Shown here: one piece after another, positions 12,002-28,432 of the stretch
Layout: each line of letters opens with the position of its first letter
Position numbering within the stretch: position 1 is the stretch's first letter
DNA from: Candidatus Electronema aureum
Lineage (GTDB): Bacteria > Desulfobacterota > Desulfobulbia > Desulfobulbales > Desulfobulbaceae
Length of the DNA: 32,000 nt
Assembly (NCBI GenBank): GCA_004284765.1
Contig: NQJD01000001.1
Coordinates: 60,001 to 92,000 of the forward strand
Direction: 5' to 3'
Notes under the pieces: generated by a model
The model's database searches: none
Told to the model about the DNA's origin: nothing
Seen by the model: only the letters and a program-made list of their open reading frames with translations
Position numbers and translations under genes: made by a program

Positions 12002-12062
12002 ACCCGCAAACGCTTAGGATGTTCCCCGCCGCGATAAGCCCTGCTGCATAGGCACCAGCAGC

Positions 12063-14636: not shown

Positions 14637-15343
14637 GGTTGCAGCCCCAGCGTTGCGAAGGGTGGCAGAGCCAGTATCTCCATGAACGTAGAAACATGCC
14701 AGCGGGCTTCTAAGGCCGGGTTGCCAAAGGCGATCAAATCCACGCCTGCGGCTGCGCTGTGTGCCTGATCGACCGTGGAATCACCGATAAAGATCGCCTC
14801 ATCGGGTCGCAGCTGGAAATGATCGAGGATAACATGCAGGGCATCGGGCGCAGGCTTGGGTCGAGGCGCATTGGCAGCAGTCATGACGATCTCGAAATGC
14901 TGCCGTAGCTCGAAGATATCTAAGATCATGTCCATCGAGGTGGTGCGGTTGGTCGAGATAGCCCGGTGGCAGCGCGGCGTGATGATTTGCAAAAACTGCT
15001 TCAAGTCAGGGGCCATCTGCATGTGGCGGAGGTAAGGCGTATAATCGAGCGATTGCGAATAACTGCTTACTGCCTCCCTGCTGATCTGGTGGTGCTTGTG
15101 GAAGATATGGCGGATGGAGTCAGCGACATTGTGCATGTGGACATATTCAAGCTCCTCCATGCTCATAGGTGGGCAAGAGAAATGCGCAAGCAGATCATTG
15201 TAATAAACGCGGTTGGCCTCGCGAGAGTCGAAGAGCACTCCGTCACAGTCAAAGACGACAAGTTTCAGCATGGCAGGGGGAGGTGTGGTGGCGGGGAAAT
15301 CTGCTGATGTACTCAAGAGTATAGTGCAGATAAAACTTATCAT
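14633..15343 (-). CDS. HAD-superfamily hydrolase (phosphatase-like)
   Basis: It has HAD motif I VVFDCDGVLFDS, motif II STNR and motif IV-like FIGDSTVD. The stop overlaps the cobDQ start (ATGA at 14633..14636). The true start may be Met25 (ATG 15271..15269, MLKLVVFDCDG) rather than 15343; neither has a convincing SD. Confidence 0.75.
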   Translation of the reverse strand: MISFICTILLSTSADFPATTPPPAMLKLVVFDCDGVLFDSREANRVYYNDLLAHFSCPPMSMEELEYVHMHNVADSIRHIFHKHHQISREAVSSYSQSLDYTPYLRHMQMAPDLKQFLQIITPRCHRAISTNRTTSMDMILDIFELRQHFEIVMTAANAPRPKPAPDALHVILDHFQLRPDEAIFIGDSTVDQAHSAAAGVDLIAFGNPALEARWHVSTFMEILALPPFATLGLQP

Positions 15344-15377
15344 CCTTTATAGATGAATCGCATCTTTGAGAACATAT

Positions 15378-15488
15378 TCACGAAGCAATGTGTTCAGCCC
15401 ATTCTCGGTGACAACATCTTATATTAAAATATTTTATCTGGTTAGTGTCCATCATGGACAGGATGTTGAGTTTTTCTTTCTCAAACAT
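15378..15488 (-). pseudogene. Possible truncated remnant of a HEPN (DUF86-like) toxin gene
   Basis: A 36-codon ORF (MFEKEKLNILSMMDTNQIKYFNIR...) starts in an ATGTTTGA overlap with the MNT reading frame, as in HEPN-MNT pairs. It is far too short for a ~110-aa HEPN. The call rests on position and a weak N-terminal resemblance only. Confidence 0.25.
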
Positions 15489-15780
15489 AGATTATCTCGT
15501 TTCTCAGATAATCTTTCACGTAAGGCTTCAGATATTTTTCGCGGCACAAATCAACATCGCGCTGGAAGTGATTGGTTAAAAATTCTTTAAACCTGCTCTT
15601 CTTTTCATAGATATCTTCAGTTCCTTCTTGGAATTAAAGGATGATGTCTATATCGCTGCTGTCGTCTTGTTCATTTCTGGCGAAAGAGCCAAATAAGCCG
15701 AGCCTTGAAATATGACACTCATCTTTCAAGAACGAAATATAATCACTGAGGAATTTGATTATATCGTTTCCATTTAACAT
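15481..15780 (-). pseudogene. MNT-type minimal nucleotidyltransferase (HEPN-MNT antitoxin family) disrupted by an in-frame TAA
   Basis: Manual translation from ATG 15780 gives MLNGNDIIKFLSDYISFLKDECHISRLGLFGSFARNEQDDSSDIDIIL*FQEGTEDIYEKKSRFKEFLTNHFQRDVDLCREKYLKPYVKDYLRNEIIYV*. The nucleotidyltransferase signature GSxxR-x(n)-SDxD is present. The stop at 15636..15634 sits exactly where family members read DIDILVEF. Both halves are below the track's length cutoff. Confidence 0.7.
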
Positions 15781-15827
15781 TGTATCCTCAAACATGTTTT
15801 CCTATTCGGAAGAGGGGGCTGGCAGTG

Positions 15828-16085
15828 CTATTTATCATAATGGTAACGGCATTGCGCTATAATCAGATTCCCATCTTTGATGGTATAGACAAGCCTGTGC
15901 TCATCGTTGATTCTTCTGCTCCAGAATCCACTCCATTCATGCTTCAACAGCTCTGGCTTGCCTATACCAGAAAAAGGATTTCTCAAGATGTCTTTGATCA
16001 GCGCGTTGATGCGCTTCAGCATCTGTTTGTCGTTGCCCTGCCAATAAATATAATCTTCCCATGCCTGCTCGTGCCAGTTAATCAT
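15828..16085 (-). CDS. yoeB: YoeB/Txe-family type II toxin (ribosome-dependent mRNA interferase)
   Basis: MINWHEQAWEDYIYWQGNDKQMLKRINALIKDILRNPFSGIGKPELLKHEWSGFWSRRINDEHRLVYTIKDGNLIIAQCRYHY matches E. coli YoeB closely along its full length. I used the ATG at 16085, which overlaps the antitoxin stop by 8 nt; the track start at 16097 adds 4 aa. Confidence 0.93.
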   Translation of the reverse strand: MINWHEQAWEDYIYWQGNDKQMLKRINALIKDILRNPFSGIGKPELLKHEWSGFWSRRINDEHRLVYTIKDGNLIIAQCRYHYDK

Positions 16086-16317
16086 TGAGCAGCCCATGCG
16101 TTTCGTATTTGCCAGACTCGATATCTTTCACCGCCTTATCAAGGCGTTCTTTATTCGTCGCGGACTGCGCAAGATACTCAGTTTCGCTGTATGCACTGTC
16201 ATGATCTATCCGATCTCGCAGAGTCTCAAGAACGAATTCTTCCGCTGTTTGGCAGAATGATTTTGCAATATCATGTATTCTGCTTGTCAGGCTATCAGGA
16301 ATATTTATTGTCAGCAT
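16078..16317 (-). CDS. Chimeric antitoxin: ribbon-helix-helix N-terminus plus a YefM-type toxin-binding C-terminus
   Basis: 79 aa. The N-terminus LTINIPDSLTSRIHDIAKSFCQTAEEFVLETLRDRI has a strand-helix-helix (CopG/RHH) pattern. The C-terminus ETEYLAQSATNKERLDKAVKDIESGKYETHGLL resembles the YefM C-terminal YoeB-binding segment ([27 protein letters not shown]). Confidence 0.8.
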   Translation of the reverse strand: MLTINIPDSLTSRIHDIAKSFCQTAEEFVLETLRDRIDHDSAYSETEYLAQSATNKERLDKAVKDIESGKYETHGLLND

Positions 16318-16428: not shown

Positions 16429-16827
16429 TCAGCTTGATAAGCTTTCTTTGATAAATGTTCCTATAAAAACACCTATTGTTGCTGCACCTGTAAAACGGAA
16501 GTCTGTACCAGTGAACACAGCAACAATAATTCCTCCTACCGCTGCTGCCGCCATCGAATAAAATACTTTTTCAAAGAAAGATGGCGCACTCTCTCTGATT
16601 TTCTTTCCAGCTCCCCATATTCCCTTTAAAGCTGCTATGAGGATATTAAAGGCAATAAAAGCAAGAACTCCAATCACCACTAACGCCAATAACTCGTTCA
16701 TAATGTCACCAATCATGGAAAAAACAAGCAATATCCCTGCCGCCCAAACGACGGCAGGGAATTTAGGCCACAACTCACTTCGCCGGTTTCCACTCCTTGA
16801 GGAACGCAGGCAAATGTCCTGCCTCAC
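16429..16827 (-). CDS. Small multi-pass membrane protein, unknown function
   Basis: It has hydrophobic helices (LLALVVIGVLAFIAFNILIAAL, AAAAVGGIIVAVF, ATIGVFIGTF) and looks AT-rich by eye. The start is uncertain. The track start (GTG 16827) overlaps the acsC 3' end by 53 nt; the alternatives are ATG 16716 or ATG 16701. Confidence 0.5.
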   Translation of the reverse strand: MRQDICLRSSRSGNRRSELWPKFPAVVWAAGILLVFSMIGDIMNELLALVVIGVLAFIAFNILIAALKGIWGAGKKIRESAPSFFEKVFYSMAAAAVGGIIVAVFTGTDFRFTGAATIGVFIGTFIKESLSS

Positions 16828-18124
16828 GCGGCCCGATGGTGATAGTCCACTCCGGCAGCTCCTCTTCCAGCTCGCCCTTGATGGTGGCGAGATAGCCCGG
16901 AATGATCAGCTCGCGGTGTTTGACCTTGTCGGCAATGCCGGACTTCTTGACAAAGGCGGCGATCAGGTCTGCGCCGAACTTGCCCGCCGCCCACGCGGTG
17001 AGCACAGACAGGCCCTCGGTGTCCTTGATCAGCAGCCAGCTCGGCACTTTGGAGCCTTCGATCTCGCCGGAAACAATGAAGTAGGTCAGCGAGAAGTTGC
17101 AGGTGATCAGCACCGGCGAATTCTCGTCCGGCCCAGTGATCGGGTAGATGTCCTCGGCCACGACCATTGGCCGCTGCGGGTCGGTGAAGATGTTGAGCTG
17201 CTCCAGCAGAAGCGGGAAGAGCACGTCGCCTTGGATGTCGGAAAAGACGGCGATTGCCGCATACTTGGCCATCAACACCGAGCCGATCAGTGCTTCCATC
17301 ATCAGGTCGTCGCACATCTCGCAGGGGAAGGCGATGACCGGGAAGCCGAGGGCTTTGAACTTCTCCTTCACGGCGGAGCGGCGGGCGACGATGCTGTCCT
17401 CGAAAGCACCGCGCAGGGTTCTCGCGCCGCTGTCAAGCACCATGTCCTTGACCCCAGCGGCGATCAGCTTGTTGACCAGATCAACCAAGTCGCTGAGGTT
17501 CTTGCCCTTCACGCCGATAGGGCAGCCGGTCTCTTTGGCGAGCGCGGCAAAGGCATCGGCATTCTCGGCAGTCGCGCCGTAGAGCAGCGGCTTGTTGTCA
17601 CCGCAGACAGCGGCAGCAGCCTTGAGCGCGGCAGCGTCGCCGCTCATCAGAATCAAAGCCTGCTTGGGCGCGGCGGCCATAACTTTCTTCGCCATATCCG
17701 CCAGCGAAACACCGCCCGCATCTTTAATCGCCACGAGATTGTTGCGCATCATCACCCCGACGCGCTCATACTCCAAGGTCGCGGCCCGCTTCAGCTTGCC
17801 GTCCACCGAGGCTGCGTCCTCGTTCGTGCTGATCAGCACGGCAAGGCCGGTTTTGTTTTCAAAGCGCTTCTCGTGCCGGAACTGGCAGGTCTCGCCGCCT
17901 GCGGTGAAGGCCGCCTCGCCGCCGCCGATCTTGATCGTGCGGATGGGCGGAGCCGATGCCTCGCCGATGGTGGCCTTGGCCTCCTCGCTCACATCAACAC
18001 ATGCTACGATCTCAGCCTGCCCTGCCGCCACTTTCATGGCAAAGGCCAGACAGGTGGGGATGCCGCACTTGCCGCAGTTGGTCTTGGGCAGCATCTTGAG
18101 AATCTGGATACCGGTTAACGCCAT
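16775..18124 (-). CDS. acsC: Corrinoid iron-sulfur protein, large subunit (AcsC / CdhE-like)
   Basis: The N-terminal [4Fe-4S] motif LTGIQILKMLPKTNCGKCGIPTCLAFAMKVAAGQ is as in Moorella AcsC, followed by a TIM-barrel and a corrinoid-binding C-terminal region. I placed the start at ATG 18124, which has a strong SD (AGGAGGG 5 nt upstream). The track start at 18142 is TTG. Confidence 0.92.
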   Translation of the reverse strand: MALTGIQILKMLPKTNCGKCGIPTCLAFAMKVAAGQAEIVACVDVSEEAKATIGEASAPPIRTIKIGGGEAAFTAGGETCQFRHEKRFENKTGLAVLISTNEDAASVDGKLKRAATLEYERVGVMMRNNLVAIKDAGGVSLADMAKKVMAAAPKQALILMSGDAAALKAAAAVCGDNKPLLYGATAENADAFAALAKETGCPIGVKGKNLSDLVDLVNKLIAAGVKDMVLDSGARTLRGAFEDSIVARRSAVKEKFKALGFPVIAFPCEMCDDLMMEALIGSVLMAKYAAIAVFSDIQGDVLFPLLLEQLNIFTDPQRPMVVAEDIYPITGPDENSPVLITCNFSLTYFIVSGEIEGSKVPSWLLIKDTEGLSVLTAWAAGKFGADLIAAFVKKSGIADKVKHRELIIPGYLATIKGELEEELPEWTITIGPREAGHLPAFLKEWKPAK

Positions 18125-18234
18125 TTTATCCCTCCTGGTCAAAAAAATCAGAATCAGAACACCGGGAACACGATTCTCTGTCCGCCCGGCTGCTGGTGCT
18201 TTGTTATTTTTATTTTGCTTGAATCAGCTACATC

Positions 18235-18498
18235 TCAGCGCAACATGCGCTCATAGCCTGCATGTCTGCCAATCCAAAACCATGTGATGGTGTCCCCGCG
18301 CAAAACACCCAATGCCCGACAATCCAAGCTGATGCGCACAGAGTAAATCGGCTCCTCTTGGTCAACCCGTTTGAATTGCAGACCCGGACTGTGCGGATTG
18401 CTGTGCCATAATTCATACGCCTTCTCCGCCCGTTCCCGCAGTTCTGTTGGCAATGCCTGATAGAGATTCCAGAATTGCTTCGTGGTGCGGGAAATCAT
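18235..18498 (-). CDS. ParE-like/RelE-superfamily type II toxin
   Basis: 87 aa with the pattern LP..LRE.A.KAYELW..NP.HPGLQFKRV......YSVRISLDCRALGVL.GDTITWFWIGRHAGYERML, characteristic of the ParE-like toxin family. ATGA overlap with the upstream antitoxin stop. Confidence 0.75.
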   Translation of the reverse strand: MISRTTKQFWNLYQALPTELRERAEKAYELWHSNPHSPGLQFKRVDQEEPIYSVRISLDCRALGVLRGDTITWFWIGRHAGYERMLR

Positions 18499-18800
18499 CG
18501 GGCCTTCACTTTGCCGTCCGCAATGACCATTTCCAAGGTTTCGCCTGCATCCAAATCAGCAAGTGCCTGACGAGCCATAGCCAGGAAGTCATCGCGGTTG
18601 GCATTGTACGTTTGCTCCCAAGCCTTTTCTTCCTGTTCCATTGCGGCTTGAGCGACATGCTCTTCGTCCGGCGCAAGCTGCGTTTGCAGCCAGCGGGCAA
18701 AATCAAGCACCTGCAACACGCGGCGCGAAGGCAAGGTTCTCACCACGTCAATCAGTGCCAGTTCTAACGCGGCTGGCTGCCGGGCAGATTGAGTTGTCAT
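18495..18800 (-). CDS. Putative cognate antitoxin (DUF2281-like N-terminus)
   Basis: MTTQSARQPAALELALIDVVRTLPSRRVLQVLDFARWLQTQ..., acidic in the middle. The stop overlaps the toxin start. I used Met24 of the track ORF (ATG 18800), 4 nt after the ParA-like stop at 18805. Confidence 0.6.
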   Translation of the reverse strand: MTTQSARQPAALELALIDVVRTLPSRRVLQVLDFARWLQTQLAPDEEHVAQAAMEQEEKAWEQTYNANRDDFLAMARQALADLDAGETLEMVIADGKVKAR

Positions 18801-18804
18801 TTTG

Positions 18805-19782
18805 TCAACTTGTAAGTTGATCAACACGAGTCGCGATCTCTTGAATTTTATTTTTAAAAGAGATCGCATTACTATGCTGTGTGCCTTTCAATCCAGCGAG
18901 TTCATGAACAGGCATTCTTTTTGTTTGCGCTAACGGTATCAAACTGGAAAGGCTTTTTATCTCGCCTATTTCATAGTTATCTTGAGGTATTATTAATTTA
19001 TACCCATTTACATCATCAAGCACATCAACAATATTATTTTTTATCGCAACTGGAAGGCTCTGTACCCATGGTTGCCAAAATTTTGCTGATTCGTTCCGAT
19101 ACACATTAAACATTTGTGTAACATAGCCAATAAATTTTGGTTTACCGTTGGGAACAGGAAATGGAAGAGATGCTATTCTGGTTCTGGCATCTTGCCACAA
19201 AATAGACCATTCTCGTAATTTTTTTCCAAAGTTTTCTGTGGCACGAATAGAAAATGCATCAGGAATCATTGGAGAAATAAAATAATCGCTGGACAAGAGC
19301 AGTGAACGTGTTAAACTGCCAAGATTTGGGCCTAAGTCAAAGAAAACAAAATCAATTTCGTTTTCTTGAATATATTGTTGCACGATTCGATAGATAGCTG
19401 TTGTTATCCTGAATCCTCTTTCTCGACCTGCGAGGCATTCTACCCATGCATTACTAAGTTCTTCTTCATAATCTCCAAAGAGCACATCTCCTGGATACAT
19501 ATAAATGTCCCTTCCTATTTTACGCCAAGGTGCTCTCGTTCTTATATCTCCTGTGCCTTTTAACAAAGGTTCAACCATTCTATAGATACTTCGACCTTCT
19601 GGCTTCCATGAGCTTTCCAAACTTGAGTCAGTTAAGAAATGAATAGATAAGCTGCATTGAGGGTCGCCATCAACCAGCAATACCTTTTTCCCCATTGCTT
19701 CAAGCGCATAAGCAAGGTGATAAACAAAAGTTGTTTTTCCAACTCCTCCCTTATTATTAAAAATCGATATAATTTTCGACAC
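18805..19782 (-). CDS. ParA/Soj-family deviant Walker-A ATPase (orphan; no ParB seen)
   Basis: 325 aa with a GTG start, the deviant Walker A NNKGGVGKTT, and VDGDPQCSLS (ParA-type DxDPQ). The gene looks strongly AT-rich by eye compared with the flanking acs genes. Confidence 0.8.
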   Translation of the reverse strand: MSKIISIFNNKGGVGKTTFVYHLAYALEAMGKKVLLVDGDPQCSLSIHFLTDSSLESSWKPEGRSIYRMVEPLLKGTGDIRTRAPWRKIGRDIYMYPGDVLFGDYEEELSNAWVECLAGRERGFRITTAIYRIVQQYIQENEIDFVFFDLGPNLGSLTRSLLLSSDYFISPMIPDAFSIRATENFGKKLREWSILWQDARTRIASLPFPVPNGKPKFIGYVTQMFNVYRNESAKFWQPWVQSLPVAIKNNIVDVLDDVNGYKLIIPQDNYEIGEIKSLSSLIPLAQTKRMPVHELAGLKGTQHSNAISFKNKIQEIATRVDQLTS

Positions 19783-19894
19783 AGTTATTCCTTTTAGGTT
19801 ATTACCTTCTTTTTAAAATCGGACAAGCCTTTACATCCTCAAGAATCAACAAGGGGCAGACGAGCATCTCTGCCCCTTGCATCTCCGCCGAAAA

Positions 19895-22102
19895 TCACCC
19901 CATCGCCGCTTCCATCTCCAAAGCAGGATGACCCTTCTCCTTCATGAAGGCCAAGATTTCAGCCTCGGTGGTGCCCTGCTCCTCGGTGGCGATCATGTCG
20001 TACAGCTCCGGCATACCAATATCCGCGCAGGCTGCCTTCAGCTTTTCACTGATCTCCTCCTTCATCATCTTGGGCATCCAGACCATCCGCTTCAGACCGC
20101 CTTCCGCCTTGAAGAGCTTTTTGCTGGTCATGAAGTGCTTGGACACGCCCATGAAACCGGGGGTCTGCATTCCGCCGCCCGCCATGCCCGCGAGGGTGGT
20201 GAACTTCATGCCGGACGGAGTCATGCCCATGTAGTCGCGGTTGACGACCATGATGCCGTTGCACTGCGGCAGCATGGCGGCGATGGCCTCAAAGCAGCCG
20301 CAGGCGGTCATCGGGTTGTTCATCAGCGAGTAGCAGCTGACCTCGGTGACTGCGCCGCGTGAAGCCTGGTTGACAAACTCGTTGATGCCGCTGAAGTAGC
20401 CGTTGTCCGGGTCAGTGCATTCGCCTTTGGGAATCGGCTGGTTCGGGCCAGTTGGGTTGATCTGGAACGAGGCCTTGCCGTCTAACCAGTTGTACGCTCC
20501 GCACATGCCGATGCGCTCCGGCGTGATCACGCAGACATGGCTCGGCGCAAAGGACTGGCAGAGGGTGCAGGAGTAGAAGACCTCCTCGGTCTCGTCGGTC
20601 ATCGCGCCAAGACGGAGGTCGCGCTCGGTATAAACCTGCTTGGCCAAGGCCATCACTTCCTCAACCTTCTCCTGCACGGTGTAGATTTTCACCTGCACCT
20701 TGTCGAGGATTGCGCCGAACTCCTGATGCAGCTTGCCGTGCAGCACCTTGCCGATGTGCTTGAAGGAGAATCCTTTCTCGACCGCGCCCTTGCCGATGCG
20801 CACCCACATGATGTTGCGCTGACCAATGTGCATGATGCCCTGCACGTAGTTGATCAGATGGTGGAACTGGCGCTCCAGAATCGGCTCAAAGTCAGACTGC
20901 ATCTCGCGGCCAGCGACCTCGACCAGAATGGCGATGGGCAGGTTTTGCCCCTGCTTGATGTCGCTGATGTCCGGGCCTTCGAGAATCACCTTGCCGTCCT
21001 CAACCTCGTCCATCTCCTTGGAGATCAAGACTTCCACGCCGGTCGTCCGACCGCCGCCGCACTCCATGAACAGATCATCCTTGCGGATGCGCTCGCCCTC
21101 AAAGGCCGGGCCGAAAGACATCGGAATATCAATCTTGTTGACGCTGACCTTGAGGCCGCGCACCTCAATCGCCTTCTGGACGATTTCGTCGTGCGGCACA
21201 TTGGAGACCACGTGCTCGTAGGTGCAGATGCCGGTCGGCAGCACCTGCGGGATGTCGTAGTCAGAAATGGTCGGGAAGCCCCAGTTGATCGCGCCTGCCG
21301 CGTTGGCGTACCACTCGTCGCTGACCGGGCCAAAGGCCATGACAAAGGCGAAGGTGCGGTTCTTGTTGTAGATCAGGTTGGCGCGGTAATCACCGGGCTT
21401 CACGCCGCCGAAGGCCAAGGCCACGCGGCAGGCAAAGCCGATGGCAAAGACCACCGAAGTGTAGGACTTGCCGAAAGGCACGAGCCGGGTATTCCAGCCG
21501 ACCTGTACGCCGTTCTCCTTGAGCAGCTCGGCCATGTTCTTGCCCTTGGACTGGTCGTGCATGAAGATATACAAGTTCTTCTCCTGCAATTCCAAGGCGA
21601 TCTTGGAGGCCACCGCTTTATCCTCCGGCGAGCCGACAATGGCCGCGAAGCCCGGCGCGGTGCCGTCCACAAACTCCACGCCGCGCTTGCGGAAGATCAC
21701 GTCGTCCGCCGCGCCCAGCCAGAGATTCTCCGACGTAGGCTCTTCGCTTTTGGTGTAGAAATTCGGCTCGTTGAGGTAGCGGATGGCCTCGTACATCTCC
21801 TCAGCGAAATACGTGGCCATGCCTGCGTCTAAGGCAGGCGCGAGATACGGCAGCCAGATCTTGTCGCTGACGATGGCGGGCAGCAGCGTGCGGCATTCTT
21901 GGAAAATTGCCTTCATGTCGCCCAGCTTCTCCACCTTCGCGCCGAGCATCGAATAGATGATCGGCAGATAATAGGCAGTGTTGGGGAAGGAAACCTCGTG
22001 CTCAGGCCCGAACTTCTTCAGGGCCTCCTCGTAGGCCGCCTCAGCCATGTCCACAATTTTATGGGCACCCCGGATGGCTGCGGAACAGATGATCTTTGAC
22101 AT
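19895..22102 (-). CDS. acsB: Acetyl-CoA synthase (CO-methylating; CODH/ACS alpha subunit, AcsB/CdhC-like)
   Basis: 735 aa. The N-terminus (KFGPEHEVSFPNTAYYLPIIYSMLG) parallels Moorella AcsB (YGPDHPVGYPDTAYYLPVI). The A-cluster Cys-Gly-Cys motif MTACGCFEAIAA and CTLCQSFAPSHVC are present. SD AAGGAG upstream. Confidence 0.96.
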   Translation of the reverse strand: MSKIICSAAIRGAHKIVDMAEAAYEEALKKFGPEHEVSFPNTAYYLPIIYSMLGAKVEKLGDMKAIFQECRTLLPAIVSDKIWLPYLAPALDAGMATYFAEEMYEAIRYLNEPNFYTKSEEPTSENLWLGAADDVIFRKRGVEFVDGTAPGFAAIVGSPEDKAVASKIALELQEKNLYIFMHDQSKGKNMAELLKENGVQVGWNTRLVPFGKSYTSVVFAIGFACRVALAFGGVKPGDYRANLIYNKNRTFAFVMAFGPVSDEWYANAAGAINWGFPTISDYDIPQVLPTGICTYEHVVSNVPHDEIVQKAIEVRGLKVSVNKIDIPMSFGPAFEGERIRKDDLFMECGGGRTTGVEVLISKEMDEVEDGKVILEGPDISDIKQGQNLPIAILVEVAGREMQSDFEPILERQFHHLINYVQGIMHIGQRNIMWVRIGKGAVEKGFSFKHIGKVLHGKLHQEFGAILDKVQVKIYTVQEKVEEVMALAKQVYTERDLRLGAMTDETEEVFYSCTLCQSFAPSHVCVITPERIGMCGAYNWLDGKASFQINPTGPNQPIPKGECTDPDNGYFSGINEFVNQASRGAVTEVSCYSLMNNPMTACGCFEAIAAMLPQCNGIMVVNRDYMGMTPSGMKFTTLAGMAGGGMQTPGFMGVSKHFMTSKKLFKAEGGLKRMVWMPKMMKEEISEKLKAACADIGMPELYDMIATEEQGTTEAEILAFMKEKGHPALEMEAAMG

Positions 22103-22163
22103 AGAAACAAGCTCCTTATATGCGATTCAGAGGTTCAATTGTTCAGGTTTGTTCGGAAAGGAT

Positions 22164-22472
22164 TCATGAATAGGAATCGAATCCTTCTATCAGCATTTTC
22201 TTCAAGGCAGGAAAACCAGTACCCATGTTTTTGATAAACTCATCAGGGTATTTATCCCAATACTTTGGAAGAATTGCATCTTTCTTGGAAAGAAAAGCGT
22301 AACTTAGCCAAGTTAATGCGAAAGCGAATGGATAGATTATAGGAGCGCATATTATGCCAATGAAGTTTAAAATAACCACTAATGGCCATAAAGTACAAAC
22401 CCATAAGATAGTCAGTGCCAACACCACTGGTGCTCTTAGAATGACACCAACAGAATATCGAAGATCTGACAT
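22164..22472 (-). CDS. Small two-TM membrane protein, unknown function
   Basis: 102 aa with a good SD (GAGGAGA), two hydrophobic helices, and a visibly AT-rich sequence lying between acsB and metF-acsD. Confidence 0.55.
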   Translation of the reverse strand: MSDLRYSVGVILRAPVVLALTILWVCTLWPLVVILNFIGIICAPIIYPFAFALTWLSYAFLSKKDAILPKYWDKYPDEFIKNMGTGFPALKKMLIEGFDSYS

Positions 22473-22579
22473 TGTTGTTCTCTCCTCAACTACCCACTCA
22501 ACCTTTTGCTTAACTGACAGAGACCTTTCTTTTTTTGAAGAAGAAAGGTCATTATTCCCGGAACCTGAACGCTTTTCGA

Positions 22580-25186
22580 TCAGCCGACCAGCCCGTTGAT
22601 CAGGGACTTGGTCATATTGACCGCCTTGGGATGACGCATGATCAGCACTTCGCCGCCAGCCATCAACATGCAGGAGGCTGTGACCGCCTCCATCATGATG
22701 CCGCGCCGCTCCTGATCGCCCATCATCGCATCGCTGGGCAGGCCAGCCTCCTTGGTCTTCCAGACTTCGCGGCCCAAGTTGCAGATGAGCGGCACTTGCA
22801 GCTTCTCGTCTTTCTGGGTGAGAGCGGCGAGGCGGATGCGCTCCATGACCGAGTAGGTGTACTCAATGCCGTAGCCGAGCGCGCCGACCGAGGGATCCAT
22901 CAGCACGGTGTCGAGACCCACGCCAAGGTTCTCCAGTAGGATGTTGAGCTGCTTGGCAAGGTTCACGTCAATCGGCGAAGCGGCCACCACTGGGTAGCGG
23001 AAGGCCATTGCGGTCGCGCCGATGGAGCGGTAGTTGCTGTCCTCCAGCGGGGCCAGGCAGACCTTCTTATCGCCGATCATCGAGGTGACTTCGCGCAGAG
23101 TCTCGGTGTCCTTGTCGGCATTGCCGCAGCCCCAGACGATCACTGGCACGTCAATGGCCTGAATCACCTTGGCCGCATCTTGCGCCGCATCCTTGGCCGG
23201 ACGGTTCGCGCCGTTGGGATCCGTGCCAGCCAGCCAGATGTTGATCGCGTCAGCCTTATAAACATCCACGCACTTGCGCGCCCAAGCCACCGGGTCGCTC
23301 ATCACGTCCTCGAAATGCCTGCTCAGGGTCTGCGGCCAGTTGTCGGGACGGATGTCCATCACTTCCATCGCGATCAACGGCTTGTTCTTCATCGCCCCTT
23401 CAAAGAGATGGAAAGGCAAGGAGGTCGAGCCGCCCACGGTCACGGTCTTGCCGCCGTTGCCGAGGGTCACTTCGCGAATTGTGCCGGAGTAGTTGACCTT
23501 GTACGACGAGGCAGGCACCTTGGCTGCGCGTTCCGCAAAGGGGGCTTCGCCGGTTGCTAATGCCGGAGCCGCAAAGTCAGCCGAAGCAGCAGCCGGGGCA
23601 GGCTTAACTGCTGCCGCAACTTTCGCAGCTGCTTCTGCGGCGGCTTTTGCCTTGGCCTCTGCTTCCGCCTTCAACTTGGCTTCCGCATCTGCCTTCGCCT
23701 TTGTCTCGGCTTCAGCCTTCGCTTTGGCCGCAGCCTCTTCCTTGGCTTCTGTCTCTGCCGCTGCTTTTGCGGCTGCATCCGCCTCAGCCTTCAATTTGGC
23801 CTCTGCTGCTGCCTTGGTTGCCGAGTCATCCACAACCGGAGCTGCCGGAGCGACCGGCGCAGCCGCAACTGGCTTCTTGGCGCAGCATTCCGGCTCGCGT
23901 TTGAGGACAGCCTCAGCCCTGGCAAAGTTCATCAGGGCCTCGAACTGATCATCGCTCAGGCCGTAGGCCGCCTTCAATGCCTTCAGCCCCACGCTGACCG
24001 AATCCAAGGCCAGCAGGCGTTCCTTCTCATTCATCTCATGCTCTCCCGCATCATCTGCCGCAGGCGCGGCAGGGTTAATCTCTGCCCCAACCTGCGGACG
24101 GGCGGCGGCAATGGCCTCCGCTTCGGCACGGGCTGCGGCTATAATCTTCTCGGCTTCGGCCTTGGCCTGATTGAGCAGCTCATCAGCCGCCGCGCCGCGC
24201 ACCTCAATGGTCTCGGCAACAGGGGCCGCGCTCTCTTTGACAGGCTGAACAGCGGCGGCATCCTCAGCAAAGGTCGGACGGGGCAACAGACCGGCCTTCT
24301 CGCAGATTTCGCCGACCGCCTCCTCCCACTCAATCGCCATGACATGGACACCAGCCACGCCCGGAATCTCCTTGACCTGATTGATGATGTCAACGCAGAT
24401 GTTGATGCCTTCCTGCTTCTGGTTCTTTGCGCCCTTCATCCGCTCGATCACTGCGTCGGTCACATCCATGCCCGGCACGAACTTCTTCATGTAGTTCGCC
24501 ATGCCCAAGGACTTGGGCGGAGTCACACCGGCGAGGATGTAGGCCTTCTCGGTCAGGCCGAGGTCGCGGGCCTGCTTCATGAACTCCGCAAACTTCTCAA
24601 CGTTGTAGATGATCTGGGTCTGGATGAAGTCCGCACCATTGGCGATCTTCTTGCCCATGCGCACGGCCCGGAACTCGAACGGCCAGGCAAAGGGGTTGGC
24701 CGCCGCGCCGAGGAAGAGCTGCGGGGCCGTGCCCTTCAGCTCCTCGCCGCATTGAAACTTCTTCGCGTCGCGTAAGTCCCGCATCATGCCGAGCATCTGG
24801 ATCGAGTCCATGTCGAACACGCCCTTGGAGCCGGGATGATTGCCGAACTTCTGGTGGTCGCCCGTCAGGCAGAGGAGGTTCTTCAGGCCCAAGGCGGAGG
24901 CCGCCAAGATGTCGGACTGCATCGCGATCCGGTTGCGGTCGCGGCAGGTCATCTGGATGACCGGCTCCACGCCCTCAGCTTGGGCCAGCAGGCCCGCGCC
25001 GATAGACGACATGCGCACAATGGCGGTCTGGCAGTCGGTGATGTTGACCGCATCCACCTTGCCCTTGAGCAGCCTCGCCTTGGCGCGGACCACCTCCGGG
25101 TCACTGTTCTTCGGCGGCCCCAGCTCGCCCGTGACGGCGAACTGGCCGCTGCGGAGCACCCGCTCCAAATTGCTCCCTGATTTCAT
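22580..25186 (-). CDS. metF-acsD: Fusion: methylenetetrahydrofolate reductase (MetF), a ~255-aa Ala/Lys/Glu/Pro-rich linker, and the corrinoid Fe-S protein small subunit (AcsD/CdhD-like)
   Basis: 868 aa with SD AAGGAGGA. Residues 1-~303 (nt 25186..24278) are MTHFR-like: FAVTGELGPPK, VDAVNITDCQTA, IQMTCRDRNR, NLLCLTGDH, FLGAAANPF, ADFIQTQIIYN. Residues ~455-530 (nt 23824..23597) are an AEAKLKAEADAAAKAAAETEAKEEAAAKAKAEAETKAKADAEAKLKAEAEAKAKAAAE repeat. Residues ~561-868 are AcsD-like: VTVGGSTSLPFHLFEG, PLIAMEVMD, INIWLAGTDPNG, VPVIVWGCGN, MDPSVGALGYGIEYTYSVMERIRLAAL. Confidence 0.88.
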   Translation of the reverse strand: MKSGSNLERVLRSGQFAVTGELGPPKNSDPEVVRAKARLLKGKVDAVNITDCQTAIVRMSSIGAGLLAQAEGVEPVIQMTCRDRNRIAMQSDILAASALGLKNLLCLTGDHQKFGNHPGSKGVFDMDSIQMLGMMRDLRDAKKFQCGEELKGTAPQLFLGAAANPFAWPFEFRAVRMGKKIANGADFIQTQIIYNVEKFAEFMKQARDLGLTEKAYILAGVTPPKSLGMANYMKKFVPGMDVTDAVIERMKGAKNQKQEGINICVDIINQVKEIPGVAGVHVMAIEWEEAVGEICEKAGLLPRPTFAEDAAAVQPVKESAAPVAETIEVRGAAADELLNQAKAEAEKIIAAARAEAEAIAAARPQVGAEINPAAPAADDAGEHEMNEKERLLALDSVSVGLKALKAAYGLSDDQFEALMNFARAEAVLKREPECCAKKPVAAAPVAPAAPVVDDSATKAAAEAKLKAEADAAAKAAAETEAKEEAAAKAKAEAETKAKADAEAKLKAEAEAKAKAAAEAAAKVAAAVKPAPAAASADFAAPALATGEAPFAERAAKVPASSYKVNYSGTIREVTLGNGGKTVTVGGSTSLPFHLFEGAMKNKPLIAMEVMDIRPDNWPQTLSRHFEDVMSDPVAWARKCVDVYKADAINIWLAGTDPNGANRPAKDAAQDAAKVIQAIDVPVIVWGCGNADKDTETLREVTSMIGDKKVCLAPLEDSNYRSIGATAMAFRYPVVAASPIDVNLAKQLNILLENLGVGLDTVLMDPSVGALGYGIEYTYSVMERIRLAALTQKDEKLQVPLICNLGREVWKTKEAGLPSDAMMGDQERRGIMMEAVTASCMLMAGGEVLIMRHPKAVNMTKSLINGLVG

Positions 25187-25268
25187 AATCCTCCTTCTAT
25201 CTGATCCGCCGCTGCGGGCGGAAAATGTTTGGCAATTTCTTTATTGAACGCTGACGGTCGGGCTGGAC

Positions 25269-25322
25269 GGGCCGCTTTTCTGTAGGGGCGAAAAATTTTT
25301 CGCCCCTACAGAAAAGCGGCCC
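25269..25322. repeat. 54-bp perfect palindrome containing the GTAGGGGCGAAAAATTTTTCGCCCCTAC core
   Basis: GGGCCGCTTTTCTGTAGGGGCGAAAAA|TTTTTCGCCCCTACAGAAAAGCGGCCC, verified base by base. It lies in the cooS / metF-acsD spacer. Confidence 0.9.
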
Positions 25323-25483: not shown

Positions 25484-25511
25484 GTAGGGGCGAAAAATCT
25501 TTCGCCCCTAC
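25484..25511. repeat. 28-bp near-perfect palindrome of the same family
   Basis: GTAGGGGCGAAAAATCTTTCGCCCCTAC (one arm mismatch), 8 nt downstream of the cooS stop. Confidence 0.85.
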
Positions 25512-25518
25512 CTGCCCG

Positions 25519-27510
25519 TCAATGCTTCCCGCCGCCGCATCCTGCTCCGCCTATGCCCTTGCCCGCCTCAATCTCGCGGCGCATCGCCATATCCATCAGC
25601 ACGCGCTCTTTCTTCTTGTTGATGCCCAGAGCCTCGCGCTTCTCCTCAATGGCCGCAATCATCGCCTTGGCAATGTCCAACGGCTCGCTTGCCACGCCCC
25701 AGCAGGCCCCGTACTCCTCTTTCAGCCCCTTGAGGATGTACTCGGAGAACTTCTTGGCCCCGCTGATCGGCAGGTCTTGGAAGATGACATGCGCACCGCT
25801 GGCGACAAAGTATTGACCAATAGCCACCGCCTTCTCGCTCATCCAGACCGGCGCAGTGCCAACCGCAGGCAGCTCGGCGATATCGTTGCCAAGGCCGCCT
25901 TCACGCACCATCTCGGTCAGGGCAATCAGCAAGCGGGAGTTGTCCACGCAGGAGCCGACATGCAGCACCGGCGGCATACCCACTGTCTCGCAGACCTCGC
26001 GCAGACTGTCGCCGGCAAACTCGGTCGCCGCCTCTGGCCGCATCAGACCAACGCGGCCAAGAGCCTGCGCCGCGCAGCCAGTGGCCAGCACCAGCACGTT
26101 GTTCTTGATCAGCTCTTTGGCAATGATCTCATGGACGTTGTCGGCGTGCTTGTAGTGCTCGCAGCCGACAATCGCAGCCACGCCCCGGATGCGGCCATTG
26201 ATGATGTTGTCGTTCAGCGGGCGGTACGACTGCCGGAAACGGCCGCCGAGCATGTAATTAATGGTCTCGTGCGAGAAACCAACCACCACGTCGAACTTCT
26301 TGTCCTTGGGAATGTAGTGCGGCCCGCGCTTCTTGAAGTTGCCAATGGCGTGGGTGAGTATCTTCTTGGCCGAGGCGTAGGAGTCATGCTCGTCAAACTG
26401 GATGTGCACCGCGTCCGGCATCATCGCCCGGTAGTTGGTGGTGATGATGTCGGTGTGCTTGTCCTTCACCACTTGCGCGACCGACTGCATCACGCACTGG
26501 ACATCCACCACCATTGCCTCGACTGCGCCGGTCGCTAAAACCATCTCCTGCTGAATGAACGAGCCTGCCACCGGAATGCCCCGGCGCATCAGGATCTCGT
26601 TGCCTGTGCAGCAGACACCGGCAAGGTTGATGCCTTTCGCCCCGGCTTTCTTCGCCAGAGCCAGCATTTCCTCATCCTCGGCAGCGAGACAGAGCGATTC
26701 AGCTAAAAGCGGCTCATGCCCATGCACCGTGACGTTGACCATGTCCTCGCGCAGCACGCCCAAATCAATGGTGGCCCGCTTGGGCACCGGCGTGCCGAAC
26801 ATGATGTCGGTCAGCTCGGTGGAGAGCATGGACGCGCCCCAGCCGTCAGCCAGTGCGCAGCGGGAGGCTTGGCGCATGATGTTGTGGTATTCCTGATCCA
26901 CGCCCATGTGGGTACGGTGCATCATTTCGACCACCTCGCGGTCAACGCCGCGCGGCTCCACGCCCTTGGCCTTCCATATCTTCTGCTGCTTCTCCGGCGC
27001 GCGCTTGAGCATGGTCAGTATGCCGTCCTGCTGGCCGAACTCAGCCAAGGCACGCTCGCCCAGCTCAAGGGCGATCTCGTTCTTATCGCGGCCTTCCGTG
27101 GCAATGCCAAAGAGCTGGGCCATCTTGTGCAGCTTGGCCACGTCTTTGATCTCGTGCGGGGTCTGGCCCTTGGCTGTGGCGATAAAGCCGCGCACCATCT
27201 CGCGAGCATGGTCGGTGTGGGCCGAAGTGCCTGCGGCGACAATGCGGCCAAAGTTGCGGGCGGCCACGGTGTCGGCAGTGGCTCCGCAGATGCCGACCAT
27301 GGATTCCACGCCGTCAATGATCTGGCACGGCCCCATGTTGCAGTTCTTGCAGCAAGTGCCCTGCGAACCGAAGAGGCAGGCAGCCATGCCCCGCTCTTCA
27401 ATCCGGGTGTAGGCGGTGCGGACTTTCTTTGCTAAATCCTGATTGAGCAGCTCGCGGGTGGAGCTGGCGGTGATCTCGTTGCTGCTGGCGATGCGGCTGG
27501 GCTTGGCCAT
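25519..27510 (-). CDS. acsA: Anaerobic Ni-Fe carbon monoxide dehydrogenase catalytic subunit (CooS/AcsA)
   Basis: 663 aa with SD AGGAGA. N-terminal Cys cluster motifs CLFGSQGTCCKNCNMGPCQI...GICGATADT, plus SAHTDHAREM, HGHEP, GVCCTGNE, GCEHYKH, TGCAAQ and HVGSCVDNSR, which are typical C-cluster ligand contexts. Confidence 0.96.
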   Translation of the reverse strand: MAKPSRIASSNEITASSTRELLNQDLAKKVRTAYTRIEERGMAACLFGSQGTCCKNCNMGPCQIIDGVESMVGICGATADTVAARNFGRIVAAGTSAHTDHAREMVRGFIATAKGQTPHEIKDVAKLHKMAQLFGIATEGRDKNEIALELGERALAEFGQQDGILTMLKRAPEKQQKIWKAKGVEPRGVDREVVEMMHRTHMGVDQEYHNIMRQASRCALADGWGASMLSTELTDIMFGTPVPKRATIDLGVLREDMVNVTVHGHEPLLAESLCLAAEDEEMLALAKKAGAKGINLAGVCCTGNEILMRRGIPVAGSFIQQEMVLATGAVEAMVVDVQCVMQSVAQVVKDKHTDIITTNYRAMMPDAVHIQFDEHDSYASAKKILTHAIGNFKKRGPHYIPKDKKFDVVVGFSHETINYMLGGRFRQSYRPLNDNIINGRIRGVAAIVGCEHYKHADNVHEIIAKELIKNNVLVLATGCAAQALGRVGLMRPEAATEFAGDSLREVCETVGMPPVLHVGSCVDNSRLLIALTEMVREGGLGNDIAELPAVGTAPVWMSEKAVAIGQYFVASGAHVIFQDLPISGAKKFSEYILKGLKEEYGACWGVASEPLDIAKAMIAAIEEKREALGINKKKERVLMDMAMRREIEAGKGIGGAGCGGGKH

Positions 27511-27544: not shown

Positions 27545-28432
27545 TTACGCCAGCCCGGCGAACTGCTTCGCCGACTGAACGGTGTTCTTCATCAGCATGG
27601 TGATGGTCATCGGCCCGACTCCGCCCGGCACTGGCGTGATGGCGGCGGCCTTCTCCTTCACCGAGTCAAACTCCACGTCGCCTGCGAGCTTGGCCTTGCC
27701 AGACTCGGTCATGCCGACGCGGTTGACCCCGACATCAATCACCACCACGCCTTCTTTGACCTGATCGGCCTTGATCATGTTGGCGACACCGGCAGCAACG
27801 ATCAAGATATCTGCCCGCTTGGTGTGGAAATCCATGTCCTTGGTGCGGGTGTGGCAGAGGGTGACAGTGGCGTTGCCGCCTGCCCGCTTTTGCAGCATCA
27901 GGTTGGCTACCGGCTTGCCGACAATGTTCGAGCGGCCCACAACCACGACCTCAGCCCCGTCGGTCTTCACGCCGCTGCGCTGGAGCAGCTCCAACACACC
28001 GTGCGGGGTGCAGGGCAGGAAGCATTTCTCGCCTAAGACCATGCGGCCCACGTTGACTGGGTGGAAGCCGTCCACGTCCTTGTCCGGGCTGATGGCGTTC
28101 AGCACCTTGGCTTCATTGATCTGCTTGGGCAAAGGCAGCTGCACGAGGATGCCGTGAATCTTCGGGTCGTTGTTGCACTTCTCCACCAAGGCTAAAAGCT
28201 CGGCCTCGCTGGTATCAGCAGGCAGCGTCACCTGCTCGGAGTGAATGCCCAGCTCCTTGGCGGTCTTGTTCTTCGCCGCCACATAGGACTGCGAAGCCGG
28301 GTCTTCGCCCACCAGAATTGTGACCAGACCCGGCACGACCTTATGCTTTGCTGCCAGCTCGGCAACTTCTGCCTTCAGCTCCGCCCGGATTTCCTTTGCG
28401 ACTTCGGTTCCGCTAATGATTTTTGCACTCAT
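27545..28432 (-). CDS. folD: Bifunctional 5,10-methylene-THF dehydrogenase / methenyl-THF cyclohydrolase
   Basis: 295 aa with PGLVTILVGEDPASQSYVAAKNKTAKELGI, HGILVQLPLP, DKDVDGFHP, CTPHGV, VVVGRSNIVGKP and PVPGGVGPMT. SD AAGGAG upstream. Confidence 0.97.
   Translation of the reverse strand: MSAKIISGTEVAKEIRAELKAEVAELAAKHKVVPGLVTILVGEDPASQSYVAAKNKTAKELGIHSEQVTLPADTSEAELLALVEKCNNDPKIHGILVQLPLPKQINEAKVLNAISPDKDVDGFHPVNVGRMVLGEKCFLPCTPHGVLELLQRSGVKTDGAEVVVVGRSNIVGKPVANLMLQKRAGGNATVTLCHTRTKDMDFHTKRADILIVAAGVANMIKADQVKEGVVVIDVGVNRVGMTESGKAKLAGDVEFDSVKEKAAAITPVPGGVGPMTITMLMKNTVQSAKQFAGLA

Follow-up and report, generated by a model that had tools for sequence, protein, structure and literature searches.

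It was found that a single open reading frame (ORF) at 22580..25186 on the minus strand of the window, a 32,000-nucleotide stretch of Candidatus Electronema aureum DNA (contig NQJD01000001.1), encodes a methylenetetrahydrofolate reductase (MTHFR, MetF) joined to AcsD, the small subunit of the corrinoid iron-sulfur protein (CFeSP), through a linker of about 251 residues (aa ~306-556). Among Desulfobulbia, cable bacteria included, this metF~acsD fusion is the standard version of AcsD, and at least 75 species-level genomes carry it. I consider it probable that the product is a functional MetF-tether-AcsD protein, in which the linker would hold the reductase beside the CFeSP and the CO dehydrogenase/acetyl-CoA synthase (CODH/ACS). 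Both domains themselves are textbook enzymes; what would be new is a conserved, structured covalent tether between consecutive components of the Wood-Ljungdahl pathway.

The ORF comprises 868 codons and a stop codon, starts with ATG and has no internal stop. A Shine-Dalgarno sequence, GGAGG within AAGGAGG, can be read at 25190..25194 (minus strand), 3 nt away from the ATG at 25186. The MTHFR domain occupies residues 1-305 (24272..25186, minus strand), and its C-terminal end is a conserved LLPRPTF motif. Residues 7-299 match Pfam PF02219 from position 2 to the end of the 287-position profile (E 2e-35; 122.8 bits against a cut-off of 24). The AcsD (CFeSP small subunit/CdhD-delta) domain occupies residues 557-868 (22583..23518, minus strand). 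PF03599 (CdhD) matches residues 572-813 (E 2e-44; 152.3 bits, cut-off 24.8), and NCBIfam subfamily models for AcsD/CdhD-delta cover residues 562-867, of which NF003376 reaches 376.8 bits (cut-off 280) and is matched from position 6 to position 312 of its 313. Residues 563-865 align nearly end to end with solved AcsD chains at E-values of 1e-81 to 1e-82, namely with residues 27-316 of 323 of the Moorella thermoacetica protein (4DJD chain D, E 1e-82) and with residues 7-303 of 310 of the Carboxydothermus hydrogenoformans protein (2H9A chain B). As for these proteins, an acsC partner gene is present in the cluster. However, the solved AcsD proteins are stand-alone chains of about 310-323 aa, while the AcsD of the fusion bears a 556-residue N-terminal extension made of MetF and the linker. 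Thus, the original prediction that one ORF holds a complete MTHFR domain and a complete AcsD domain was borne out.

Residues E21, D110, and Q191 of the fusion correspond to E28, D120, and Q183 of Escherichia coli MetF (MG1655 record), and all three are invariant over 76 aligned orthologues. Taking conservation as the mean majority-residue frequency over these orthologues, the MTHFR domain scores 0.92 and the AcsD domain 0.88; the latter is complete and has no cofactor motifs to check. The MTHFR domain shares 47-67% identity with representatives of stand-alone MetF proteins of about 310 aa, and by its sequence it is of the acetogen/sulfate-reducer type. Its best NCBIfam model is NF006396 (PRK08645; homocysteine S-methyltransferase/MTHFR), with 212.6 bits over residues 4-283. 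In that family, too, MTHFR is fused to an enzyme using methyl groups derived from CH3-tetrahydrofolate (CH3-THF). However, the fusion scores below the cut-off of 453, and the methyltransferase partner of the family is N-terminal and comes without a long helical tether. Other MTHFR architectures were also seen: P0126 (455 aa) has a C-terminal response-regulator receiver domain, and P0129, P0152, and P0153 (482-546 aa) have N-terminal extensions of 160-240 residues and could be MetV-MetF fusions.

Is the continuous frame real? I scanned one genome per GTDB species with two peptide patterns of the MTHFR domain, which gave at least 592 relatives, and kept the best 80; together with the window and two loci from a protein look-up, these species representatives make a set of 83 loci. 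MTHFR and AcsD lie in a single continuous ORF in 75 of the 83, a contig end cuts six, and a stop codon breaks two, one of them beside a run of unresolved bases. A protein search in a collection of 5.8 billion proteins gave 1257 matches at E <= 1e-10, and the best 120 of them, which were inspected, all have PF02219 and PF03599 within 749-937 aa. It might be argued that a frameshift or a repeat collapse in sequencing or assembly has fused two genes, since the amino-acid sequence of the linker is repetitive, two loci are broken, and acsD has been entered twice for one draft genome in the literature. Against this, the 75 unbroken loci come from independent assemblies, closed genomes among them. 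At the DNA level, the tandem repeats of the linker are weak (24-bp period, 2.9 copies, 73% matches), which makes repeat collapse unlikely. An artefact is thus effectively excluded.

The closest database proteins are those of Candidatus Electronema, with 98% identity over the best local segment, and further matches come from Ca. Electrothrix, Desulfolithobacter, metagenome-assembled genomes (MAGs) labelled Desulfobulbus, and other Desulfobulbaceae; these matches place the window in a freshwater cable bacterium. When the best 150 matches among representatives at 50% clustering were considered, only P0121 (1038 aa) and P0122 (845 aa) were full-length fusions; therefore, the family is phylogenetically compact though rich in species. 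Its carriers belong to Desulfobulbia (Desulfobulbaceae, Desulfocapsaceae, and Desulfurivibrionaceae) and to a sister set resembling Dissulfuribacterales/Thermodesulfobacteria, in which the names of the neighbouring MetV proteins point to Dissulfurirhabdus, Dissulfurimicrobium, Thermosulfurimonas, and Thermodesulfobacteria. The original prediction had taken the architecture for a possible novelty. It is common and already present in databases, where it goes by single-function names.

The single-ORF fusions invariably lie between cooS and acsB, and cooS adjoins the fusion in 74 loci. Two cluster types can be distinguished. Type A, with 62 complete loci including the window, has the order folD-cooS-[metF~acsD]-acsB-acsC; in most cases, genes for an NfnB-like protein, a selenocysteine formate dehydrogenase, and an HdrA-like protein come next. 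Type B, with 13 complete loci in the sister lineage, has the order fhs-folD-cooS-hdrA-flpD-fer4-flpD-metV-[metF~acsD]-acsB-acsC-acsE, after which come the NfnB-like gene and fdhA. The type B fusion is 994-1070 aa in length in 12 loci and 846 aa in L002, and the type B linkers tested (P0121 and L072) contain two tetratricopeptide repeats (TPRs). In type A, the linker length ranges from 225 to 320 aa.

The linker is not uniform along its length. The junction segment, residues 300-331 including LLPRPTF, has a conservation of 0.51. It is followed by a first helix, LLNQAKAEAEKIIAAARAEAEAI (residues 332-361; 24104..24193, minus strand), which AlphaFold predicts over exactly these residues with a predicted local distance difference test (pLDDT) score of about 65-77. 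The helix has a conservation of 0.64, and I348, A352, and A356 are invariant in the 76 sequences. The original prediction had likened this block to the stalk of ATPase b/E subunits. A weak 36-residue match to the N-terminal helix in a V-ATPase subunit E fragment (2kk7, E 0.0028) does exist. However, this one short helix is the sole match and no Pfam family is hit; homology to V/A-ATPase subunit E or to the F-ATPase b stalk was therefore rejected, and only the resemblance stands. A poorly conserved spacer (residues 362-375; 0.36) separates the helix from the next element.

This next element is a conserved module of about 55 residues, DDAGEHEMNEKERLLALDSVSVGLKALKAAYGLSDDQFEALMNFARAEAVLKREP (residues 376-432; 23891..24061, minus strand). 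Its conservation is 0.82, with about 20 residues invariant in the 76 sequences, and AlphaFold predicts a helical hairpin with helices at 380-408 and 412-423. A hidden Markov model of the module matches 80 of the 83 loci, the TPR-bearing sister lineage of type B included; it fails only in the divergent L002 lineage, which may be a fusion of independent origin, and in two truncated loci. The core common to both cluster types reads RE..L.SL..GL.AL+K..GL.D.QFEAL..F..AE. No Pfam family matches the module or any other part of the linker in the window. Against PDB sequences, the module profile gave whole-chain E-values of 1e-22 to 1e-28 with transcription activator-like effectors (TALEs), whose repeats have the pattern ALE.V...L..L..A.GL(S/T).(D/E)Q. 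However, each TALE repeat contributes only 3-5 bits, and the E-values are the sum over about 20 weak repeats, while the window has one unit and no tandem array. TALE homology was thus rejected, and the resemblance is probably that of a shared helical-hairpin motif.

A Cys-Cys pair (C434 and C435; 23882..23887, minus strand) follows the module. The original prediction had placed this pair inside a short globular-looking segment. The segment turned out to be the conserved hairpin, and the pair lies just after it, not inside. Apart from the window, L003, and L028, just a few loci have two linker cysteines; the pair is confined to close Electronema relatives, and most orthologues have no linker cysteine. 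A metal or redox site was considered and rejected as the pair is not conserved; nothing suggests that it is functional, because it is confined to these close relatives. The pair belongs to a Pro/Ala-rich hinge (residues 433-455; 23822..23890, minus strand) with 17% Pro, a conservation of 0.42, and pLDDT below 50.

The last part of the linker is an Ala/Glu/Lys (AEAK-type) repeat at residues 456-525 (23612..23821, minus strand), which consists of 51% Ala, 20% Glu and Asp, 20% Lys and Arg, and only 4% hydrophobic residues. It contains 22 opposite-charge pairs at i/i+4 and none at i/i+3. In 2000 shuffles of the segment, the i/i+4 count was 5.3 ± 1.9, and none of the shuffles reached 22. This excess at i/i+4, the lack of pairs at i/i+3, and the low hydrophobic content are what would be expected of a charged helix that is monomeric rather than part of a coiled coil, and the segment is accordingly predicted to form a single one. 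AlphaFold also places a helix at 458-523 (pLDDT 51-66), which would be about 10 nm in length if the segment is fully helical. The original prediction of a long charged single helix of AEAK-type repeats thus agrees with the charge pattern and the model. The segment has a conservation of 0.69, and in the 76 orthologues it is anything from 57 to 109 residues long. Ala/Glu/Lys helices are known from single alpha-helix (SAH, ER/K) domains, domain II of TolA, and engineered (EAAAK)n rigid linkers. The fusion segment shares with them the composition, the i/i+4 salt-bridge register, and the absence of a hydrophobic seam. It has no sequence homology to them, the match to the TolA model TIGR02794 being weak, compositional, and below the cut-off (E 2.6e-5), and here the helix would be a spacer between two metabolic enzymes.

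The structure prediction for which the original prediction had called thus yields helices at 332-361, 380-423, and 458-523. The AlphaFold model of the full-length fusion has a predicted template modelling (pTM) score of 0.46 and no fixed packing between the domains, as expected of a flexible tether. Three linker stretches have pLDDT values below 50 (residues 309-330, 363-385, and 427-463). These Pro/Ala-rich, disordered stretches would be accessible to proteases, and the fusion could be a precursor from which separate MetF and AcsD proteins arise by proteolysis of the linker or by internal initiation of translation. I regard this as unlikely. The aligned orthologues have no conserved Met near the AcsD boundary, so initiation at an internal ATG is improbable, and the strong conservation of the module is hard to reconcile with a linker that is discarded.

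If the linker is indeed a tether, how could it work? The N-terminal MetF would convert CH2-THF into CH3-THF, probably receiving electrons through an unlinked MetV/MvhD/ferredoxin-like cassette and an HdrA-like flavoprotein. The C-terminal AcsD would form the CFeSP together with AcsC, accept the methyl group of CH3-THF by way of AcsE, and pass it on to AcsB. The tether of about 250 residues would consist of a helix, the hairpin module, the Pro/Ala hinge, and the stiff charged helix of about 70 residues and about 10 nm. The hairpin module, together with the TPRs in type B, is a candidate docking element, and the charged helix a candidate spacer. Such a tether may prevent the producer of CH3-THF from drifting away from CODH/ACS and from the corrinoid protein, which is mobile, set MetF and AcsD at a ratio of 1:1, and leave space for the large movements of the corrinoid protein between AcsE and AcsB. 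The analysis establishes which domains are present, that their frame is unbroken, how well the parts are conserved, in which gene context they lie, and how the linker is built; I infer that both domains are catalytic and that their partners are those named here, and that tethering or channelling, or the fixed stoichiometry, would be of benefit.

AcsD is attached to other proteins as well. AcsB~AcsD fusions of 1209-1225 aa were found among the 50% representatives (P0188 and P0269), in a cluster of the order cooC-cooS-[acsB~acsD]-acsC-RACo; P0134 is an AcsD~CooS fusion, and P0128, P0130, and P0133 are AcsD proteins with a C-terminal extension, that of P0128 being a tail of Pro/Ala and AEAK sequence. 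Like the metF~acsD fusion, these proteins have a long charged or Pro/Ala linker to a Wood-Ljungdahl enzyme, or an AEAK repeat. They differ in the partner and, judged by eye, apparently lack the hairpin module. The attachment of AcsD to another enzyme of the pathway by a long charged linker is therefore a recurrent solution. The corrinoid protein must swing between the methyltransferase and acetyl-CoA synthase, as known from CFeSP/methyltransferase structures such as 4DJD, and repeated tethering of AcsD would fit this need. The scaffold or spacer arm put forward in the original prediction is likewise compatible with the AcsB and CooS fusions, the TPRs in the sister linkers, and the conserved module, and to this extent the idea has gained ground. 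The supercomplex function that was attached to it is still conjecture.

Several points weigh against the tether. Its role and the accumulation of the full-length protein are matters that I infer. The AlphaFold confidence in the linker is only 50-77. When the profile of the module was run against the 5.8-billion-protein collection, it returned three tiny ORFs and missed the known fusions, so this search is uninformative on the occurrence of the module elsewhere. metV, hdrA, and acsE were not found in the 32-kb window. The gene tables of cable bacteria list a second, separate metF at another locus; therefore, the cell may have an MTHFR besides the fused domain. Finally, the joining of adjacent operon genes can be nearly neutral. 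The stop codon between metF and acsD may simply have been lost, producing a 'Rosetta-stone' fusion whose domains work independently and whose linker is low-complexity filler. Elsewhere, AcsD is fused to whichever gene lies beside it, to acsB in L085 and to cooS in P0134; conservation is low (0.36-0.51) over much of the linker, and the lengths of the type A linker and of its AEAK part vary as described above. On the other hand, mere filler would hardly contain a 55-residue module that almost equals the catalytic domains in conservation and is common to both cluster types, nor would it be expected to have gained TPRs, which are protein-binding units, in the sister lineage. The non-random i/i+4 charges point to selection for a stiff helix, and no fewer than 75 species-level genomes have kept the fusion. 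A near-neutral origin with no role for the linker is thus a possibility to be taken seriously, though I doubt it.

Where are the electron-transfer and methyltransferase partners of the fusion? MetF works with MetV in acetogens and sulfate reducers, as MetFV or as the MetFV-HdrABC-MvhD complex of Moorella. The fusion shares PF02219 and the Glu, Asp, and Gln residues with the Moorella-type MetF, and in type B clusters metV lies directly upstream together with flpD/mvhD and with genes of the ferredoxin-like and hdrA-like kinds. It differs in that MetF is covalently joined to AcsD, metV is unlinked in Desulfobulbia, and no HdrB-type gene was identified. metV (PF12225) adjoins the fusion in 15 type B loci, whereas neither metV nor acsE was found within 10 kb of any type A locus. 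An hdrA-like gene lies within 10 kb of the fusion in 54 related loci, and flpD/mvhD in 19, while the window has no mvhD; in Ca. Electronema sp. PJ, the hdrA-like gene lies about 2 kb beyond acsC. A fer4-flpD-metV cassette occurs unlinked in the same assembly as a type A fusion in the MAG HyVt-474 (L054 and L088) and in strain B35, where the fusion locus (L023) is on contig 2 and the cassette (L090) on contig 1.

In Desulfobulbia, this conserved three-gene cassette (fer4, mvhD-like flpD, and metV; L088 6264-8166, L090 4789-6669, and L086 8003-9669) has no adjacent metF and is far from the acs cluster, and the same trio stands immediately upstream of the fusion in type B. An acsE hidden in the type A cluster was also considered and rejected. 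tblastn with the type B AcsE gave nothing, the gene in the fhs-folD gap encodes a GspE-like ATPase, and the 997-aa gene after acsC encodes the selenocysteine formate dehydrogenase.

The second metF and the absence of metV and hdr genes from the window could also mean that the N-terminal domain has no reductase activity. It might bind CH3-THF or THF, or be regulatory, with catalysis left to the separate metF. I consider this very improbable. The catalytic Glu, Asp, and Gln are invariant and the domain is 92% conserved; the fusion of the sister lineage follows directly after metV and hdrA/mvhD, as in the MetFV-Hdr clusters of the Moorella type; and type A genomes have the unlinked metV cassettes. 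Given the metV that immediately precedes the fusion in type B, the domain is far more likely to be a working reductase than a degenerate binding domain.

A bolder variant of the tether is that the linker is an assembly platform. The hairpin, with the TPRs where present, would dock a partner, for instance MetV/MvhD/HdrA, AcsE, or AcsB, and the charged helix would set the distance, resulting in a megacomplex of the form [HdrA-MvhD-MetV-MetF]~[AcsCD]-[AcsB/CooS] that connects the methyl branch with the carbonyl branch. I offer this only tentatively and think it rather unlikely. If true, flavin-based electron bifurcation by MetF would be in physical coupling with both the consumption of ferredoxin by CODH and the methyl hand-over, and carriers like Desulfolithobacter dissulfuricans would provide a natural handle on a Wood-Ljungdahl metabolon and on the energetic coupling of methylene-THF reduction.

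The fusion has largely escaped attention in annotation. Database names are single-function ones such as 'ACDS subunit delta', although one RAST-style name gives both functions. In the gene tables of cable bacteria, the present locus is the only acsD of each genome and is named simply acsD, while acsE is listed at other loci; an earlier paper names the orthologous ORF between acs and cooS 'methylenetetrahydrofolate reductase'. Since the pathway tables assign MetF to another locus, the MetF inside the acs cluster has been overlooked. No published description or test of a MetF-AcsD fusion was found in full-text searches, in which a mention in Kjeldsen et al. 2019 or Adam et al. 2018 is not excluded. 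Thus, of the two things that were to speak against the original prediction, namely that the architecture is common and that it is already characterised, the former is the case but no such characterisation turned up.

How methylene-THF reduction is wired is unsettled in Wood-Ljungdahl bioenergetics, with regard to both the electron donor and energy conservation. That MetF is covalently linked to the corrinoid protein, and that this link is conserved, suggests for these bacteria that the reduction step takes place inside or immediately beside the CODH/ACS-CFeSP machinery. The fusion is not surprising in principle, but it gives a testable handle on supercomplex formation and on the debated coupling at the MTHFR step. 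Cultured or enrichable carriers include Desulfolithobacter dissulfuricans, Thermodesulfobacteriota strain B35, and cable bacteria.

In the window, the genes are arranged on the same strand in the order folD, cooS/acsA, the fusion, acsB, a low-GC insert with a ParA-like ATPase gene, and acsC. folD lies at 27545..28432 (minus strand; Pfam THF_DHG_CYH and THF_DHG_CYH_C), and cooS/acsA, encoding CODH, is the upstream neighbour at 25519..27510 (minus strand; Pfam Prismane, E 9e-152). Downstream are acsB, encoding acetyl-CoA synthase (19895..22102, minus strand; Pfam CODH_A_N, CdhC, and ACS_CODH_B_C), and acsC, encoding the CFeSP large subunit, the obligate partner of AcsD (16775..18142, minus strand; Pfam FeS and CdhD).

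A perfect palindrome of 28 bp, GTAGGGGCGAAA(a/g)ATTTTTCGCCCCTAC, occurs twice in the 332-bp intergenic region between cooS and the fusion (25282-25309 and 25484-25511) and nowhere else in the window, whereas chance alone would give no copy. As no T-run follows either copy, the palindrome does not qualify as a canonical terminator; an operator or a REP-like element is possible. On the other side of the fusion, an insertion of about 430 bp (22145-22576) lies between its stop codon and acsB. The blocks homologous to both sides of this insertion are only about 5 nt apart in Ca. Electronema sp. PJ. The insertion holds an ORF for a hydrophobic 102-aa protein (22164-22472, minus strand), which has no Pfam match and is unique among the 83 loci.

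The insert between acsB and acsC (18143-19894) has a low GC content (0.41-0.50) and contains small ORFs at 18235-18869 and a gene for a ParA/AAA_31-type ATPase (18805-19782, minus strand), found in the window only. It was considered whether the latter is CooC, and this was rejected because the gene is unique to the window and lies in the low-GC insert. Other cable-bacteria loci have non-homologous inserts of 1.6-2.4 kb at the same place.

In relatives, a formate dehydrogenase alpha gene lies 3′ of acsC, as at 17941-20934 of the Desulfolithobacter dissulfuricans locus (L001), with equivalents in 51 loci. It has an in-frame TGA in the motif CARY-U-HSPT, and therefore its product contains selenocysteine. 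The protein has ferredoxin-like Cys clusters at its N-terminus, and an NfnB/GltD-like gene precedes it. In the window, synteny breaks downstream of acsC (10118-16317), and the window lacks the hdrA-like gene that Ca. Electronema sp. PJ and the majority of type A loci have there. Instead, the window has toxin-antitoxin-like small ORFs at 15828-16317, in a stretch shared with L003, a HAD hydrolase gene, a CobD-aminotransferase/CobQ fusion at 12063-14636, and a gene for a bacterial Roco protein with LRR-Roc-COR domains at 10118-12001 on the plus strand.

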